From a virus, in IMG/VR virus record IMGVR_UViG_3300010037_000001, positions 1-41,044 of that record: DNA of 41,044 nucleotides; one strand, written 5' to 3'. Of the stretch, positions 197-38,665 are shown in pieces; the first letter of the stretch is position 1, and each line of letters opens with the position of its first letter. The position numbers and the translations under genes were made by a program. Below the pieces are notes generated by a model. That model had not been told where the DNA came from. It did no database searches and saw nothing but the letters and a program-made list of their open reading frames with translations.

Positions 197-224
197 ATTA
201 TAAATTTACTCCTATGAATATCAA
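197..224 (-). promoter_or_regulatory. Sigma-70-like promoter for the lysis cassette
   Basis: Minus strand reads TTGATA (224-219), 16-nt spacer, TATAAT (202-197). The ATG at 181 lies 16 nt downstream of the -10. Confidence 0.45.
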
Positions 225-19333: not shown

Positions 19334-21438
19334 GGAGTGTGTGCATTAATTAATTCGGCTTTTACTTTTTGTACTGGTTCACTTGTCGCCCCCGCAAGTT
19401 TTGCTGGAGGTGCTGTTGGGGGAACTGGCCCTTGCATAGATGCCCCTCCTCCTTCTTGAGGAGCACCTGGTGGTTGCATACCACCTAAGAGTTTTTTCGC
19501 TTCGGATTGAGCCGTTTGATCGCCTTGATCAGTTTCTCCAGTAGTATCAAAAGCTTTTTGCCTATCATAACCATACGCATCCACAAGTTTTTGTAAGCCA
19601 TATTTGAGTGATAAAATAGGTTTAGGTTGTCCTTCTGGTCCTGGTTCCATTGCGCTTCCTGCTACTTCAACATAATCTTTCGCATTTGCTTTTTCAAGTT
19701 CTCTTGAAGCTGCAAAAGTACTTTCCGAAACAACTCGAACAGTTAATTTACCCTTAGATTTAATATAAGCTGGCCTTGCCTGGAAAAACCCAATCTCTTC
19801 TTCGCCTTTTTTCGACATAGTGAGAGATTCACGTGTATATTCACCTTTAGAATTTGGTTTTTCACGAAAATCCATACCTTTGACACGAATTCTACGATAT
19901 TCTACTTTCTTTTCTTTCATTAAAGCTTCTATTTGTTCTGGAGACATTTCTTCCATACCGGCTAAATGTTTGATTAAAGGCTCTGGATAATATTGCTGGA
20001 CTAATTCCATCAACAACCAACCAAGACGTTTATAGCCACGGTTTTCGTTGCGCTTAACGTTCAAATTTAAACGACCTTGAGTAATTTCTCTTCGAATAGC
20101 TGCTACTGTTGCCTGAGTACTTGTATTCATATCAGTGATTTGTCTGAAATCTACACCAGTAGCAAAAATTAGATAATCCATGAGCATACTGATAATTTTA
20201 TCGGTAGATCCGGACATCCCTGGTAGTTCAACATGCACAAAAGCGTCTTTTGGACTTGAGACACGAGTGACTTGGTTCGGACTTAGAATAGTGGCTGTAT
20301 CATCAAACTCAGAATTACTATTATCAAGAAGATTAATCCCTGATCCTGCTTTCTTTTCTTTATCAATTGCGATATTCACAAAAGCATTTATAGCATCACA
20401 AATATTCGCGATACGTTGAGGCTCTCCTTCTCCCACATAAGTATTGAATTGTAGACGATCAATGTAATCAACAAAAGGAAGCTCTTTATGTTTATAAGGG
20501 TTTGCGCCGTGATAGATAATAACTCCATTTGCAATCATCAGGACTTCATCTCTCATCACATTCCAATCCTCAAATACTACCACTTGGTCACTATCATCAG
20601 CCAGAAAGTCTTTATGAATTACTTGGTTATCTATCCCCACAGTTAGCCATTTACCTTTCTGAACTTTATCAATGTTTTTAAAAATTGCTGTGTCTGAAAA
20701 GTATTCAAGAAAAGATCCATAATCGTGTCTTTTTCTCCATTTAAAATATGGAGAATCAGAAACAGTTCGAGATAATGGATGAAGCCAATAATCATCAGGA
20801 TAAATATTCTCTACACAAATATCATCATAAAAAAGAACCTGTTCTGCTTTTGGAAGATCAATATCATACTCAGTATCTTCTGTTTTTTTTGATTCTCTTT
20901 CCTTCTTAGTATCAACCTCACTCACTCCTTCAACTTCTTTCTTGTCTTTATTGGGCATTTTTTCATTTCTTTCAACCCGGTAGACAGTCTTCCAGCCAAT
21001 ATACTGAGCCATATTACCCATTATATCTTTCTCAAAATTCAGGATATCAAACTTATAATCGAGATCCACATACTTTAAATTCCACACATGTTTTTTAACG
21101 ATCTCGTCCATATTTCGAGCGATCACCATATCCTCCTCATACTCAAGAGGCTCATAATTAAAACTTGGAGGAGCTTTCATTTCAGTGGCTCCTTTTGATT
21201 CTATAATCCATTTTACAATAGGAAGTACTACTCCTGATCTACCATCCTCATAAACAAAAGGACGAGCTTCATATCTTTCGATATTTTCTCGCCATTGCTC
21301 TTCATATTGTGACCGAAAACGAATAGCCGTATTCATTTCATCGTCAAACCGCTTTAAAAGATTACGCTCCTGTTCATTCGGTTGCCATAATTTATTATCT
21401 GGTTTTTTGCCAAGTTGGAGATCTTTTACTTCTAGCAA
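19330..21438 (-). CDS. Portal protein
   Basis: 702 aa, immediately after TerL. The acidic/aromatic N-terminal region (RFRSQYEEQWRENIERYEARPF) is typical of portals. The first in-frame ATG is codon 34, so a TTG start at 21438 is implied. Confidence 0.85.
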   Translation of the reverse strand: MLEVKDLQLGKKPDNKLWQPNEQERNLLKRFDDEMNTAIRFRSQYEEQWRENIERYEARPFVYEDGRSGVVLPIVKWIIESKGATEMKAPPSFNYEPLEYEEDMVIARNMDEIVKKHVWNLKYVDLDYKFDILNFEKDIMGNMAQYIGWKTVYRVERNEKMPNKDKKEVEGVSEVDTKKERESKKTEDTEYDIDLPKAEQVLFYDDICVENIYPDDYWLHPLSRTVSDSPYFKWRKRHDYGSFLEYFSDTAIFKNIDKVQKGKWLTVGIDNQVIHKDFLADDSDQVVVFEDWNVMRDEVLMIANGVIIYHGANPYKHKELPFVDYIDRLQFNTYVGEGEPQRIANICDAINAFVNIAIDKEKKAGSGINLLDNSNSEFDDTATILSPNQVTRVSSPKDAFVHVELPGMSGSTDKIISMLMDYLIFATGVDFRQITDMNTSTQATVAAIRREITQGRLNLNVKRNENRGYKRLGWLLMELVQQYYPEPLIKHLAGMEEMSPEQIEALMKEKKVEYRRIRVKGMDFREKPNSKGEYTRESLTMSKKGEEEIGFFQARPAYIKSKGKLTVRVVSESTFAASRELEKANAKDYVEVAGSAMEPGPEGQPKPILSLKYGLQKLVDAYGYDRQKAFDTTGETDQGDQTAQSEAKKLLGGMQPPGAPQEGGGASMQGPVPPTAPPAKLAGATSEPVQKVKAELINAHTP

Positions 21439-23078
21439 GCTGTTCGATATAAAGGAGTAGATTTTTTCTGGATCTTTCTTTCTAAATCTTCCATCCTTTT
21501 TTCGAATTTACTTGAGTCCTGAGGTAGAACCGTTGGTTTCTTTGGCCCACTTGCAGGTTCATTTACCGCAAAATATTCTAAAGCTGTGCGATAATGAGAA
21601 GTCCAATCATGAATTGGTTTATTGTTTGGAGTTGTCGCTTGACTATCTTCCTTTCGCTGTGGTAATCGAGCATTTTCTAGGGCGTCGATGAAATCATATA
21701 AGTTTTTGTGAACTACCAATCTTCTAATCAAGAGTTTAGTTGCATTTACCCTTGTTTTCAAGTCAAATTTTTTCCGGTTCACAATTACGTAAATTCCATG
21801 AGGCTGAAGCTGCTTGATAACTGAAGTCATTGAGGTTTGATTTTTGTTTTCTCCTGTAGGATCCCCAAAATGTATCGCTGGCTGCCAAAGCCTGTGACGA
21901 TTAATCATCTCAAGCTCCATTTCATCATACTTATAATTAAAACCACCAAAAGATTTGATTTCCCCAGTAACAAAAGGAACAAAATAATCAATAGCTTTAT
22001 TTGGCTTTTGATAGGCATCAATAATCCTCACAGTTCCGGTTCGTTTATCAATCTGGAACCAAATAAGTGCGGTTGGATCCGTGCCTCCAAAATCCCAAGA
22101 GACATAAAGGGGTTGAGTTGGATCATACTCCTGAACCTCAAGATAATTTCTTTCACAAAACTCATCATAAACACGCCCTCGAAGAGATTTGTTATAATTA
22201 ATATCTAGTTCCTGAGCTACTTCTTCCTCAGTACGTCTCTCACATTCAAGTCGATACCACTCAGCATCTTTTTTGGGATGCAGTTTCCAGTGAAGAGTTT
22301 GTTTTTTAATTCGGCTCTTGAGTGCCAGTTCTGCAAACTTATTACCTTTTCCGTTTACAGTTGAAGTTGGTATCCGGCATTTAGTTGAGTCTCCCATTGA
22401 ATTCCACGCTGAACGACCGTGAGACCAAAAAGCGAACTCATCTGGCCAAACTACCTTATACCTTCCTTGCCTTGAGAATCTTTCGGTTGGAGCATAGCCC
22501 ACAATTGAGTTACTTCGGGTTTTATTCGTTAGATTCATATAAGCACGATACTTCTGGGGAAGCATCCATTCTGGTGTATTTTGAATAAAAAAATCCAAAC
22601 GACCAAAATGACTGTCCATACTTTCTTTGGTGTCAATCAGATCTTCGATATACGATCCAATAAGTGCACTGAAACCAGTGTCAAACAGCCAATACCAATA
22701 AAGCACCCCCAGAACCATCCAAGAAACACCCATGTCTCGGGATTTCTCAGTAAGCCCGTCCTCTCCTCCATCAATAAGAGTTTTAAGCCAAGCGACATAA
22801 GCATCTTGGAAAGGATAAGTGATAAAGGGAAGTGTTTTCTCATCTACACGAGGATCGTGAGTCCAAAGGATTGCATTGAAAAAATAAAGCATTCCTTCTA
22901 CTCCTTGACTACATTTTTTCAAAACAAATTCTCTCATAGACTCCTCTTCGCATGCTTGATCCAAAAAATATCTCCATTTTAGATTTTCCAAATAATCTTT
23001 TGGAACAATATTAAATTTTGGATCTATAACGGTTTTTGAAGTATTCAGTGATTTGAGTTGGATCAACGGTTTCGCCAT
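21432..23078 (-). CDS. terL: Terminase large subunit
   Basis: 548 aa. It has a Walker-A-like LTEKSRDMGVSW, a Walker-B-like VVWPDEFAFW, and a nuclease-half acidic motif (YVSWDFGGTDPTALIWFQ). The start overlaps TerS by 68 nt, so the true start is uncertain. Confidence 0.9.
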   Translation of the reverse strand: MAKPLIQLKSLNTSKTVIDPKFNIVPKDYLENLKWRYFLDQACEEESMREFVLKKCSQGVEGMLYFFNAILWTHDPRVDEKTLPFITYPFQDAYVAWLKTLIDGGEDGLTEKSRDMGVSWMVLGVLYWYWLFDTGFSALIGSYIEDLIDTKESMDSHFGRLDFFIQNTPEWMLPQKYRAYMNLTNKTRSNSIVGYAPTERFSRQGRYKVVWPDEFAFWSHGRSAWNSMGDSTKCRIPTSTVNGKGNKFAELALKSRIKKQTLHWKLHPKKDAEWYRLECERRTEEEVAQELDINYNKSLRGRVYDEFCERNYLEVQEYDPTQPLYVSWDFGGTDPTALIWFQIDKRTGTVRIIDAYQKPNKAIDYFVPFVTGEIKSFGGFNYKYDEMELEMINRHRLWQPAIHFGDPTGENKNQTSMTSVIKQLQPHGIYVIVNRKKFDLKTRVNATKLLIRRLVVHKNLYDFIDALENARLPQRKEDSQATTPNNKPIHDWTSHYRTALEYFAVNEPASGPKKPTVLPQDSSKFEKRMEDLERKIQKKSTPLYRTAC

Positions 23079-23837: not shown

Positions 23838-24059
23838 TTAAGCATTTTGAAGAACCAATACGTTGATTGCGTTTAATCCCTTCTCATTCTCTTCAAGAGT
23901 AAACTCTACCTCATCACCTTCTTCAAGTTGATTAAAAAATACTCCTTTTGCGAGTCCCCGAGCATGAAAAAAAATATCTTTATCACTTTCTTCGGTCTCA
24001 ATAAACCCAAAACCTTTATCTGTAATTCTTTTGATCTTACCTCGCATTGTTTGTGACAT
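23838..24059 (-). CDS. Cold-shock-domain protein (CspA family)
   Basis: 73 aa. GKIKRITDKGFGFIETEESDKDIFFHARGL contains the RNP1-like KGFGFI and RNP2-like IFFH motifs. Confidence 0.85.
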   Translation of the reverse strand: MSQTMRGKIKRITDKGFGFIETEESDKDIFFHARGLAKGVFFNQLEEGDEVEFTLEENEKGLNAINVLVLQNA

Positions 24060-24472: not shown

Positions 24473-24496
24473 AAAAAATCCCCGAAACTCGGAGAT
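24473..24496 (-). terminator. Rho-independent terminator in the leader of the late operon
   Basis: Minus-strand RNA reads AUCUCCG-AGUUU-CGGGGAU followed by UUUUU. Pair 24481/24493 is G.U on minus-strand RNA but C.A on the plus strand, so the element is strand-specific. Confidence 0.65.
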
Positions 24497-24558
24497 TAGG
24501 ACTTTGAATTTTGGGGATTGTATATTCACCTTTCGAGCGATCTTATGTAATTAACCTG

Positions 24559-24586
24559 ATTATAACATCGAAAAGATGAAACTCAA
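24559..24586 (-). promoter_or_regulatory. Sigma-70-like promoter upstream of the leader terminator
   Basis: Minus strand reads TTGAGT (24586-24581), 16-nt spacer, TATAAT (24564-24559). Confidence 0.55.
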
Positions 24587-25732: not shown

Positions 25733-25754
25733 GTAGTCACGAAGCATTGACTAC
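25733..25754. promoter_or_regulatory. Inverted repeat (candidate operator) overlapping the -35 of the rightward promoter
   Basis: GTAGTCA (25733-25739), 8-nt spacer, TGACTAC (25748-25754). Confidence 0.4.
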
Positions 25755-28422: not shown

Positions 28423-28451
28423 TTGACTTTTCACGAAGCATGTGCTACCAT
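28423..28451 (+). promoter_or_regulatory. Sigma-70-like promoter
   Basis: TTGACT (28423-28428), 17-nt spacer, TACCAT (28446-28451). The -10 is weaker than the others. An ATG at 28460 lies 8 nt after the -10. Confidence 0.4.
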
Positions 28452-36854: not shown

Positions 36855-37276
36855 TGCTACCAATTTTTTATGGACAAATAGAGAAAGGAAGGTTGACCCT
36901 GAATGATAAAATTACCTTTCAAAAATACCTTCATACTCTCAATGGAGAAGTTCAGCTTGTTCTTGGAAAAAAAAAGAAAATTCGCAGCACTCCTCAGAAT
37001 GATTATTATTGGGGAGTTATTATTAAGATGATTTGTGATGAAACAGGAGCAGAGGATAAACAGGCTATTCATGATGGTTTCCGGTCTGAATATTTGAAAG
37101 ATATTTCAAAAGGATATCCAATAGTTAGGAGTACAACTGATCTTAGTACTATAGAGTTTAAAGAGTACTGCCGAAACGTCCAGAAATGGGCTGCTGATTT
37201 TCTTGGACTTTATATTCCAGATCCGAATGAAGATGTATTTGTATTAAATATTAACGATTTAAACGATGCCAATTAA
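36854..37276 (+). CDS. NinB/Orf-like recombination mediator candidate
   Basis: IRSTPQNDYYWGVIIKMICDETG and VRSTTDLSTIEFKEYCRNVQKW parallel lambda NinB RSLDQNRKLWACLGDVS and QSTSRMRVGEFAELLELIQ. The comparison is from memory. Confidence 0.5.
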   Translation: MLPIFYGQIEKGRLTLNDKITFQKYLHTLNGEVQLVLGKKKKIRSTPQNDYYWGVIIKMICDETGAEDKQAIHDGFRSEYLKDISKGYPIVRSTTDLSTIEFKEYCRNVQKWAADFLGLYIPDPNEDVFVLNINDLNDAN

Positions 37277-37580
37277 AACAGAGGGGAGTCAGTTTCCAGA
37301 AATTGATATTAAACTTAAAAAAATTCTGCAAGAACGAATTAAAAACAGAAACAGACGAGGGCGATTCAAACAAACTCTTGCCGACGAATACAAAAGGATT
37401 GCTCTTAAGATTGGGGTAAGCAGTAGAGCTGTAGAGGCATGGGCTAATAACGAGAATAGGATTACTTATTTTAATGCTATCAAGCTAAGAGCTGTGATAA
37501 AAGTTCCTTGGAGGGTTTTGTTTAAGATGAATTTCCAGCCTAGGATCGCAAGAAAGTATAATCATAAAAAAATCTCTTGA
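37266..37580 (+). CDS. HTH DNA-binding protein
   Basis: 104 aa. EYKRIALKIGVSSRAVEAWANNEN looks like a helix-turn-helix. Confidence 0.6.
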   Translation: MPIKTEGSQFPEIDIKLKKILQERIKNRNRRGRFKQTLADEYKRIALKIGVSSRAVEAWANNENRITYFNAIKLRAVIKVPWRVLFKMNFQPRIARKYNHKKIS

Positions 37581-37608
37581 CCACAAATGCCACATGTGTA
37601 TAATGTGG
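37577..37608 (+). promoter_or_regulatory. Sigma-70-like promoter with an overlapping inverted repeat (operator candidate)
   Basis: TTGACC (37577-37582), 16-nt spacer, TATAAT (37599-37604). CCACAT (37590-37595) / ATGTGG (37603-37608) brackets the -10. Confidence 0.6.
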
Positions 37609-37630
37609 GCAATAACAATTTGATTATTTT

Positions 37631-37759
37631 ATGAAAAAAAAACGAATAGCAATTTATCTTGATGAAGAGGAGCATCTGAAATTACGAGCAAAGCTTATTT
37701 TGCTTGGAGAAACTGTGTCTGGATGGATGAGAAAAAAAATTAATAAATTTTTAAAATAA
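37631..37759 (+). CDS. Ribbon-helix-helix (CopG/Arc-like) regulator, 42 aa, not in the track
   Basis: Translation is MKKKRIAIYLDEEEHLKLRAKLILLGETVSGWMRKKINKFLK. It shows a beta-strand followed by two helices, the typical RHH pattern. Confidence 0.65.
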   Translation: MKKKRIAIYLDEEEHLKLRAKLILLGETVSGWMRKKINKFLK

Positions 37760-37762
37760 TTT

Positions 37763-38059
37763 ATGAAGAAAGCTTCTATTGCTCAACAAGTAATATTACC
37801 TACGGTTTGGTGGAATCCCTTTACTTGGTTCTATGAAAAAAAGATCTATGGCTTAGAAAGTCATGGGTTTAAAACAACAAGGGGAGGGATTACTATTCCA
37901 GTAGTAATAACGAGAGGAAAGGTTTATGAGTATTCTGGTGATGGATCTACTTTTAAATCGAAAAGAAAATTCATAGGGACTTTGCCTTCAAAGAAAGGTA
38001 TAACCTTGAGTTCAAGCAAGCAATATTATATTGTTTTAGATTTATCTGAAAATTTTTAA
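37763..38059 (+). CDS. Hypothetical basic beta-rich protein
   Basis: 98-aa ORF starting 3 nt after the RHH gene. Confidence 0.65.
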   Translation: MKKASIAQQVILPTVWWNPFTWFYEKKIYGLESHGFKTTRGGITIPVVITRGKVYEYSGDGSTFKSKRKFIGTLPSKKGITLSSSKQYYIVLDLSENF

Positions 38060-38068
38060 AGAAGTAAC

Positions 38069-38665
38069 ATGAATGACATCAGGGTAGAAATAAAGATCAA
38101 AAACAATAAGCTTTATAAACTTATTTTTGCTAAATTTAATTCAGTAAATGAATTTAGTAAGGCGTGTGGAGTTAGTCCGGGAAACATTGGAGATTATCTG
38201 AATTTTACTAGTAAACCTTATAGCTACAAAACTGGTATAAGAACCTGGCGAGCAAGTGCACAAAAGATTGCTGATTATTTCCAAGTTTTCCCTGAAGATA
38301 TTTTTGATGAGGATAATTATGAAAAAATCAAAACAAATAAAACTTTCTGTGAAGTTGATAGTGAAAAGATAGGTTTATATTTGGCAAATGAACAAGCAAG
38401 GCTTGAGGGACCAAATATAGTTGATGAAACTGAGGAGCTTTTAAAAAAAAATGCTATTGAAGAAGCTTTAGAAAGTTTGACTGCCAGGGAAAGACTTTTG
38501 ATAGAATTACGATTTGGCTTGAACGGAAACTATTCTCATACTCTTGAAGAAACAGGAAAGAAATTGGGGATAACTAAAGAAAGAATAAGGCAAGCTGAGG
38601 CAGGTATTTTGATGAAATTAAATAATGAAAGATTATTAAAACTTAACTCGTTTAAATATGGATGA
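38069..38665 (+). CDS. XRE-type HTH fused to sigma-70 region 4 (no region 2)
   Basis: The C-terminus LTARERLLIELRFGLNGNYSHTLEETGKKLGITKERIRQAEAGILMKL closely follows the primary-sigma region 4.1/4.2 pattern. The N-terminus SVNEFSKACGVSPGNIGDYLN looks like an XRE HTH. No region 2 motif is visible. Confidence 0.75.
   Translation: MNDIRVEIKIKNNKLYKLIFAKFNSVNEFSKACGVSPGNIGDYLNFTSKPYSYKTGIRTWRASAQKIADYFQVFPEDIFDEDNYEKIKTNKTFCEVDSEKIGLYLANEQARLEGPNIVDETEELLKKNAIEEALESLTARERLLIELRFGLNGNYSHTLEETGKKLGITKERIRQAEAGILMKLNNERLLKLNSFKYG

Follow-up and report, generated by a model that had tools for sequence, protein, structure and literature searches.

Why a phage should carry region 4 of a primary sigma factor and no other sigma region, joined to a helix-turn-helix (HTH) domain of a different kind, is the question raised by the gene g63 (protein P0001) of IMG/VR virus record IMGVR_UViG_3300010037_000001. 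The stretch of DNA analyzed here (the window) is this complete record, 41,044 bp of 36.6% G+C with 63-bp direct terminal repeats, which was assembled from a soil metagenome; a single soil-metagenome DNA run and no RNA run are listed with the phage. The gene lies on the plus strand at 38069..38665, stop codon included, and encodes 198 amino acids, in exact agreement with the open reading frame given in an earlier note on this DNA. Because region 4 is its sole sigma part, g63 is a transcription regulator rather than a sigma factor. Far from being a peculiarity of this phage, it belongs to a very large, almost purely viral and uncharacterized family. How it acts is a matter of graded likelihood. 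The reading that we favor, at somewhat less than an even chance with the general two-head model included, is that g63 is a two-headed, sequence-specific regulator of promoter regions that most likely activates the late and lysis promoters.

The protein's C-terminal portion is readily identified. The Pfam model Sigma70_r4 (PF04545) matches residues 133-184 with E=5.8e-14, and this match, at 38465-38620, is the only one found in a six-frame scan of the genome. Its score of 51.8 bits, against a cut-off of 24.1, disposes of the possibility, allowed for in the earlier note, that the C-terminus would fail to score as region 4. BLASTP against RpoD of E. coli K-12 gives 44% identity across sigma70 524-600, and identity to region 4 of primary sigma factors amounts to 44-52%. 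In the PDB, phmmer retrieves region 4 of SigA/RpoD with E about 1e-13 (3e-13), and the NCBIfam models for RpoD, RpoS and SigA match g63 in its C-terminal 70-100 residues only. In the AlphaFold model of g63 (predicted local distance difference test, pLDDT, 78), rigid superposition on sigma chains with VIA-align aligns only residues 115-198, onto E. coli 529-612, with Z 10-11, a root-mean-square deviation of 2-4 Å and 33-43% identity. The proposal that the last 50 amino acids follow the region 4.1/4.2 pattern of primary sigma factors is thus borne out by Pfam, BLASTP and superposition alike, and the same three sources assign residues 115-198 (38411..38662, +) to the end of linker 3.2, regions 4.1 and 4.2 and the C-terminal helix. 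The RpoD alignment also provides a common numbering, in which a g63 residue plus 414 is the sigma70 residue (for g63 127-186). By this numbering and by conservation, residues 169-184 (38573..38620, +) correspond to the recognition helix of sigma region 4, and K170, E171, R172, R174 and Q175 of g63 are the equivalents of sigma70 R584, E585, R586, R588 and Q589. The basic patch of the sigma domain is lost in g63, which has G179, M182, N185 and N186; most of it is also missing from P0002, its closest relative (59% identity), which is encoded on a 43.6-kb contig.

The N-terminal half gives weaker signals when g63 is searched by itself. The Pfam HTH_26 match to residues 18-80 (E=0.032, 14.9 bits) stays below the cut-off of 22, and a sequence search of the PDB with a profile of the N-domain returned nothing significant, the best relevant match being CylR2 with E=0.68. 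The relatives are more telling: among 60 of them, 31 match HTH_26 (best 4e-8), 20 match HTH_3 and 10 match HTH_31. Furthermore, a model of the N-domain alone (pLDDT 81), when compared with 48,161 representative chains, retrieved almost only XRE/Cro/C1 structures, including DR_2454, C.AhdI, SinR, P22 c2, the 434 repressor, DdrO, HigA, ImmR and TP901-1 CI; the Z values, from 8.3 to 5.4, are middling, and the matches cover whole target domains of 63-66 residues and form one consistent family. Going by the model and the family counts, the N-terminal domain is an XRE/Cro-type HTH, as the earlier note had surmised from its appearance. This HTH_26-like domain extends over residues ~10-85 (38096..38323, +) and closes with a conserved P-E-D-L-F motif. 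It is preceded and partly overlapped by a signature strand at residues 2-13 (38072..38107, +; mean conservation 2.85 bits) with the consensus K-D-Y-R-V-E-I-K-V-K-N-N, the N12 of which is 99% invariant in 121 members. Residues 37-44 (38177..38200, +) form the predicted recognition helix, with positions 37, 38, 39 and 42 exposed and variable. A connector of ~30 residues (86-114; 38324..38410, +) joins this domain to the sigma part; it has a conserved N90 and E95, followed by a variable linker modeled with low confidence. The likeness of residues 96-107 to the sigma-finger motif (D-S-H-L-G-D-F-I-E-D) was considered and set aside as a relic or chance, as it is not conserved in the family.

A further candidate, that the N-domain is sigma domain 3 and g63 a truncated sigma3-sigma4 protein, was suggested by a Foldseek alignment of ~190 columns to SigA and by phmmer and BLAST alignments reaching back to residue ~30-66. 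It was rejected on several grounds: the rigid fit starts at residue 115, the N-domain alone leads to XRE folds, a region 3 match occurs in a single member out of 60, and the two upstream sequence extensions are ~8 residues out of register with each other. Neither Sigma70_r2 nor Sigma70_r3 matches g63 (Pfam, E<=10), and neither matches anywhere in six frames of the complete phage genome at the same threshold. In the 60 relatives, Sigma70_r2 is found in none (E<=0.01) and Sigma70_r3 in one, with E=0.003. That region 2 is missing from the 198 amino acids is therefore upheld, including for the N-terminal half, which has an XRE fold instead; the view that a free region 4 is not an autonomous sigma factor is supported by the absence of regions 2 and 3 from both protein and genome. 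None of the genes around g63 has a sigma-like PHROG or Pfam match, and no sigma2-like partner was found near it, although highly diverged ones of the gp55 type could escape profiles. Likewise, all-against-all BLAST of the neighbors at 17 loci, with Pfam and PHROG searches of adjacent genes, revealed no partner gene conserved across lineages.

Which properties of the sigma domain have been retained was examined by comparing 121 family members with 70 primary sigma factors. The recognition helix of sigma region 4 is the best-conserved segment of the family, with a mean of 3.16 bits, and its residues are kept at high frequency (E585 0.81, R586 0.95, R588 0.88, Q589 0.92, I590 0.87, E591 0.94), as are R554 (0.85), R562 (0.96), T572 (0.87) and L573 (0.86). 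In sigma70, E585 and R588 set specificity at -33 and R584 at -31, E585, R586, R588, Q589 and R562 read -33 and the DNA backbone, and the substitution R584A changes the preference from C:G to A:T (PMC2613000). Position 584 is the one variable base contact in the family (R 0.52, K 0.15), and g63 has K170 there. K593, R596, K597, R599, H600, P601 and L607 occur family-wide at sigma-like frequencies, with L607 at 0.78, and F563 is found at 0.73. In contrast, the sigma finger, L540, K/R541, E560, L561 and L611, which reach >=0.87 in the 70 sigmas, are relaxed to 0.21-0.36 in the family; the sigma-finger motif of region 3.2, above 0.9 in sigmas, is not kept, and position 541 is K in 0.21 and R in 0.12 of the members versus 0.87 in sigmas. 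The R541C/L607P pair disrupts the contact between sigma-4 and the beta-flap (bioRxiv 10.1101/2022.01.24.477500; PMC9388147). The XRE head is conserved at its fold positions, and few residues of the folded protein vary more than the exposed ones at 37, 38, 39 and 42 of the recognition helix (0.7-1.4 bits), as would be expected of an XRE head whose specificity varies. As far as residue conservation can tell, this pattern speaks for the reading of a -35-type hexamer in DNA more than for a role limited to docking on RNA polymerase (RNAP).

A quick tree places 119 of the 121 family sigma-4 domains, and none of 69 sigmas, on one side of a split with support 0.61, which is consistent with one old capture of sigma-4 from a primary sigma. 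On average, the family is no less similar to the sigmas (identity 0.44) than its members are to one another (0.41), so that each lineage has stayed near the sigma consensus.

The family is large. Among 1.84 billion representatives, a profile built from seven relatives retrieved 1,812 clusters (50% identity clusters) at E<=1e-30. The best 150 of these 1,812 are almost all 185-230 amino acids long and match end to end; a sigma-4-only match reaches ~116 bits and should fall short of the threshold, and about 1,800 clusters are taken to have the full-length architecture. Names, where given, are automatic, either 'sigma-70 family RNA polymerase sigma factor' or 'hypothetical'. In a protein atlas, ~30 neighboring clusters of 183-225 amino acids carry Sigma70_r4 with or without HTH_3/HTH_26 and are 75-100% viral (Uroviricota), and among cellular species-representative genomes the strict N-terminal pattern was found on only three contigs of metagenome-assembled genomes (MAGs). 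No full-length member was detected in cultured phages by tblastn of three members against 50,697 phage records, which gave only sigma-4-level matches, and a full-text literature search found no paper on a protein combining XRE and sigma-4. At 17 related loci, the family gene is the only protein in common with the g63 phage; it occurs in unrelated phages, after helicase or DNA polymerase genes, beside RusA, or near terminase, portal or protease genes.

The position of g63 bears on its possible targets. The early genes occupy the plus strand from ~25.7 to 40.2 kb and include an O-like initiator (26728), a DnaC-like loader (27530), NinB (36854) and a RuvC-like resolvase (39785). Located between the latter two, downstream of the O-like and DnaC-like replication genes, g63 has a lambda-nin-like position close to the end of the early rightward operon. 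The structural operon spans 23 kb of the minus strand, with the terminase large subunit at 21432-23078, and a second minus-strand unit is the lysis operon. Promoter-like sites were located by pattern matching and are candidates only. The TTGAC(T/C) -35 boxes attributed to the phage's promoters in the earlier note are present at 25747, 28423, 30717 and 37577, and all of these plus-strand early sites read so, but the promoter-like class as such is not enriched over shuffled sequences (62 vs 58.4 +/- 8.2). The strong TTGACC-16-TATAAT site at 37577..37608 (+) is the probable promoter of the unit formed by g61, g62 and g63. A palindrome that is unique, CCACAT-N7-ATGTGG (37590-37608), flanks its -10 element on both sides. 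Two genes, coding for a 42-amino-acid ribbon-helix-helix (RHH) protein (g61) and a 98-amino-acid protein (g62), stand between this promoter and g63.

The sites ahead of the two minus-strand operons are of another type. A late promoter-like site (TTGAGT-16-TGT-TATAAT; 24559..24586, -), a candidate target of g63, precedes the structural operon; it is followed by a leader of ~55 nt and a terminator-like hairpin with a T run (24477..24497, -), 23 nt before the first late ATG (24454). The lysis promoter-like site (TTGATA-16-TATAAT; 197..224, -), also a candidate target, has the composite motif in common with the late promoter and no terminator behind it. Even allowing one mismatch, TTGAnnTTCAT-N11-TATAAT, with its 16-nt spacer, is found only at these two operon starts. 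Judging by the sequence, it marks off a candidate class of late promoters from the plus-strand TTGAC(T/C) sites. The distinction between the two classes falls at -31/-30, where the base pair is read by the residue for which g63 has K; the consensus C at -31 is missing from both the late and the lysis promoter. A 9-mer, CACGAAGCA, has exactly two copies in the genome, at 25738-25746 and 28432-28440 (+), each by a TTGACT -35 hexamer, the former immediately upstream of 25747 and the latter 3 nt downstream of 28423; some regulator may use it as an operator half-site. No motif beside the TTGAC hexamer is common to all early promoters, and a genome-wide repeat search for a composite operator was uninformative. 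At E<=10, the genome has no match to the Q models PF06530 and PF03589 (PF06323 was not searched), nor to TIGR01636 (phage_rinA) or TIGR01637 (phage_arpU).

In the favored scheme, the C-terminal head would be a captured domain 4 of a primary sigma that has kept the residues for the TTG part of the -35 hexamer. This constant head would bind a TTGA-type hexamer, and the N-terminal XRE head would bind a phage-specific site, as its recognition helix differs from phage to phage; the flexible connector might allow both heads to occupy one promoter region. With its expression driven from promoter 37577, close to where the early rightward operon ends, g63 would bind at or beside the -35 element of selected phage promoters and thereby set the early-to-late switch, most likely by activating the minus-strand late structural (24586) and lysis (224) promoters. 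Activation of these two is favored because of the nin-like gene position, the lack of any other late regulator found, the motif that the late and lysis promoters have in common and the precedent of Ltr/RinA proteins. LtrA and RinA, which have similarity to sigma region 4, activate the terS/late promoter (PMC3753634; PMC3152322).

Several points weigh against this scheme. TTCAT abuts the hexamer, at ~5.5 bp centre to centre and on the opposite face of the helix, which is awkward for the two HTH heads of a monomer. The late motif was derived from its own two sites, so that its statistic is partly circular, its independent part being the shared TTCAT 5-mer. Unlike the terS-adjacent Ltr genes, g63 is separated from the late promoter by 13 kb and is encoded on the other strand; nor is the protein a member of RinA or ArpU by sequence. 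XRE proteins are mostly repressors, and the simplest effect of a free sigma-4 on a -35 hexamer would be to occlude it. The family-wide conservation of the K593/R596/K597/R599 patch and of L607 could reflect RNAP contacts. Finally, the true late regulator could be among the many unannotated small open reading frames.

The main rival, the first of three roles suggested in the earlier note, takes up the theme of occlusion and is possible but not likely: g63 would shut off early genes and regulate its own, its sigma-4 head sitting on the TTGAC(T/C) -35 hexamers of the plus-strand early promoters and excluding host sigma region 4, with the XRE head adding specificity; the minus-strand promoters, with a non-consensus -35 and a perfect or extended -10, would be spared. 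The conserved -35-reading residues fit this proposal as well, as do the presence of TTGAC at all early promoter-like sites and its absence from the late and lysis ones, the predominance of repressors among the XRE fold matches, and the location of CACGAAGCA against the -35 hexamer at two early promoters and nowhere else. The promoter of its own operon has both TTGACC and the unique palindrome, but the latter finds a simpler explanation as the operator of g61, the adjacent RHH protein. No motif beside the hexamer unites the four early promoters, a strict C preference at -31 is made less likely by the K in place of R584, and known stand-alone sigma-4-like phage proteins are activators. By analogy, the position of g63 and the Ltr/RinA precedents point to late activation as much as to early shut-off. 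Rather doubtful is a role in RNAP docking, which takes in the other two roles suggested in the earlier note (a sigma-appropriation-type factor and read-through of the late-leader terminator). Here sigma-4 would sit on the beta-flap tip and replace host region 4, giving a hybrid holoenzyme, with host sigma domains 2 and 3, for a new class of promoters; or g63 would ride with RNAP from the late promoter past the 24497-24477 terminator in the manner of Q. It would account for the retention of the fold and of many region 4.1/4.2 core residues, L607 and F563 among them, for the sigma-like conservation of the basic patch and the H600-P601 turn in the family, and for the retained end of linker 3.2 with its S/P-E motif; the promoter-leader-terminator arrangement of the late operon and the lack of a Q homolog in the genome (PF06530, PF03589) also suit it. 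However, position 541, implicated in the flap contact by the R541C/L607P pair, is not conserved, L540, E560, L561 and L611 are relaxed too, docking on the flap alone would not need strong conservation of base contacts, and the lysis promoter has the shared motif but no terminator. Displacing a host sigma-4 tethered in cis would, moreover, probably require an AsiA-like helper, and none is recognizable. The specific form of docking in which host regions 2 and 3 stay in place while g63, bound to the beta-flap tip, displaces host region 4 in trans and, with its constant sigma-4 and phage-specific XRE head as the reading unit on the -35 side, redirects RNAP to late and lysis promoters of the TTGAnnTTCAT-N11-TATAAT type is, in our estimation, unlikely; if true, it would amount to a widespread reprogramming of promoter recognition in tailed phages, distinct from both phage sigmas and AsiA/MotA appropriation.

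Two further explanations are unlikely. As a free sigma-4 look-alike, it might act as a decoy that titrates host binders of sigma-4, such as anti-sigma-type factors, class II activators or defense sensors, with no action on DNA. The family-sigma identity of 0.44 against 0.41 within the family might reflect selection for likeness to the host domain, and proteins made of 7-9 tandem sigma-4 repeats exist. An XRE head whose fold is conserved and whose recognition helix varies would nonetheless be superfluous in a decoy, the basic patch that contacts activators is lost in g63, and no conserved partner gene adjoins it, which makes this explanation improbable. Least probable is that g63 is a true or split sigma factor, with a cryptic region 2 in its N-terminal half or in a small neighbor, after the example of T4 gp55/gp33 or B. 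subtilis SigO-RsoA. The automatic database name 'sigma-70 family sigma factor', the Foldseek alignment of ~190 columns to SigA and the frequent 4-nt overlap with the downstream gene could be cited for it. Nevertheless, region 2 is absent from the protein, 60 relatives and the genome, and region 3 from the protein, the genome and all but one of the 60 relatives; the N-domain alone leads to XRE folds only, superposition on sigma is limited to 115-198, and the alignment extensions into sigma region 3 are in inconsistent registers. The neighbors, which vary by lineage (RusA, glycosyltransferase, prohead protease, unknowns), include nothing sigma2-like.

Comparison with known systems helps to place the favored activator. 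The Ltr superfamily of Gram-positive phages (RinA, ArpU, LtrA, LtrB, LtrC) likewise comprises phage-encoded proteins of small size, none of them a sigma factor; their genes are located where the early and late modules meet, and the proteins turn on the late operon (terS, morphogenesis, lysis). Ltr proteins are shorter, at about 100-140 amino acids, and have no XRE domain, and their similarity to sigma-4 is described as limited, whereas that of g63 to primary sigmas is close (44-52% identity). In addition, g63 is at 38 kb on the plus strand and does not adjoin terS, the late operon starting at 24.5 kb on the minus strand, although some of its relatives do adjoin terminase, portal or protease genes. 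With domain 4 of RpoD/SigA, g63 has in common the fold, the HTH, the C-terminal helix and the -35 contacts E585/R586/R588/Q589, with K in place of R584. It differs in lacking regions 1.1 to 3.1 and in being fused to an unrelated DNA-binding domain, and in its family the sigma finger is not conserved and several sigma-invariant positions of region 4.1 are relaxed. Similarly, the N-domain has the fold of XRE/Cro-C1 proteins such as 434, P22 c2, SinR, C.AhdI and DdrO and the HTH_26 pattern, including a 'C-x-P-x-D-L-F'-like motif, but the family adds an invariant N-terminal beta-strand signature, has a beta-hairpin in place of helix 4, and carries sigma-4 instead of a dimerization or sensor domain.

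Phage T4 offers a parallel in strategy. AsiA and MotA together achieve sigma appropriation, and gp33 binds the beta-flap and replaces sigma-4 at late promoters; both strategies alter the occupant of the -35/beta-flap position on host RNAP, with the effect that a new class of promoters is read. AsiA, MotA and gp33 do not have a sigma-4 fold, whereas the g63 phage would supply a sigma-4 of its own, and no AsiA-, MotA- or gp55-like partner was found in it. The late operon resembles the PR'-tR' region on which lambda Q acts, in that its first late gene is preceded by a promoter, a short leader and an intrinsic terminator, and the g63 gene lies in a nin-like region beside recombination genes. Unlike in lambda, however, the gene does not adjoin the late promoter, the shared motif recurs at a second promoter that has no terminator, and there is no homology to Q families (PF06530, PF03589). 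By analogy with these systems, g63 may be described as an Ltr-type promoter-proximal phage regulator in its manner of action, built from parts of two known families. Its architecture is visible to automatic domain annotation; it is uncharacterized as far as we have found, and usually mislabeled.

Where it is used among the ~1,800 clusters of tailed-phage proteins with this architecture, the label 'sigma-70 family sigma factor' is almost certainly wrong, since they have no region 2. The conservation pattern, in which a near-invariant head reading the -35 element is combined with a variable head reading an operator, predicts a simple, modular way of marking a subset of promoters. In many uncultured phages with neither Q nor RinA nor a sigma of their own, the early-to-late switch may depend mainly on this XRE-sigma-4 architecture. 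Should g63 also dock on RNAP, it would represent a new way of taking over the host polymerase. The members of the family would also be natural two-headed DNA binders, and as such possible programmable promoter-proximal regulators.

Some features of the surroundings may be added. Upstream of g63, a cluster of putative regulators (37266-38059, +) comprises g60, which encodes 104 amino acids with an HTH-like C-terminal half and has no PHROG match, the 42-amino-acid RHH-like gene g61 (37631-37759, +) behind promoter 37577, and a basic 98-amino-acid gene. At its other end, the stop of g63 overlaps the start of the next gene (56 amino acids) by 8 nt (38658-38665), and in many relatives (loci L003, L004, L005, L007, L008, L011, L012 and L018) the family gene overlaps the next gene by 4 nt. 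Such arrangements of stop and start codons suggest translational coupling; the genes 3' of the family gene show no relation to one another from lineage to lineage, with RusA, a glycosyltransferase and unknowns among them. Second in the late operon is a cold-shock-protein-like gene (23838-24059, -; PHROG 729, 1.2e-11), which lies just downstream of the late-leader terminator; a CspA-type RNA chaperone might have some relevance to read-through.

Searches for the family also brought up a few unusual records. In a Candidatus Saccharibacteria MAG (locus L017, 8001-8291, on a 235-kb contig), a full-length member of 215 amino acids is encoded beside a PfkB-family kinase gene, with ~8 kb left to the end of the contig; a prophage remnant and a domesticated copy are both possible explanations. 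Several of the sigma-4-level matches in phage records are host rpoD genes in 'UNVERIFIED_ORG' entries. Thus, OR846618.1 (locus L021, 'Enterococcus phage Efs 1-1-1', UNVERIFIED_ORG) encodes at 565-1671 a 368-amino-acid primary sigma with an intact SigA C-terminus and is apparently host DNA; the short 'phage' records OR847339, OR849101, PQ520365 and OR845903 match likewise, and phage counts for sigma queries are inflated by such entries. Lastly, the profile search retrieved P0122 (938 amino acids) and P0195 (589 amino acids), with nine and seven tandem Sigma70_r4 repeats, Pfam totals of 249 and 190 bits, respectively, and no region 2, which could be real poly-sigma-4 proteins or assembly artefacts, as well as P0125 (1,692 amino acids), with 13 matched stretches.

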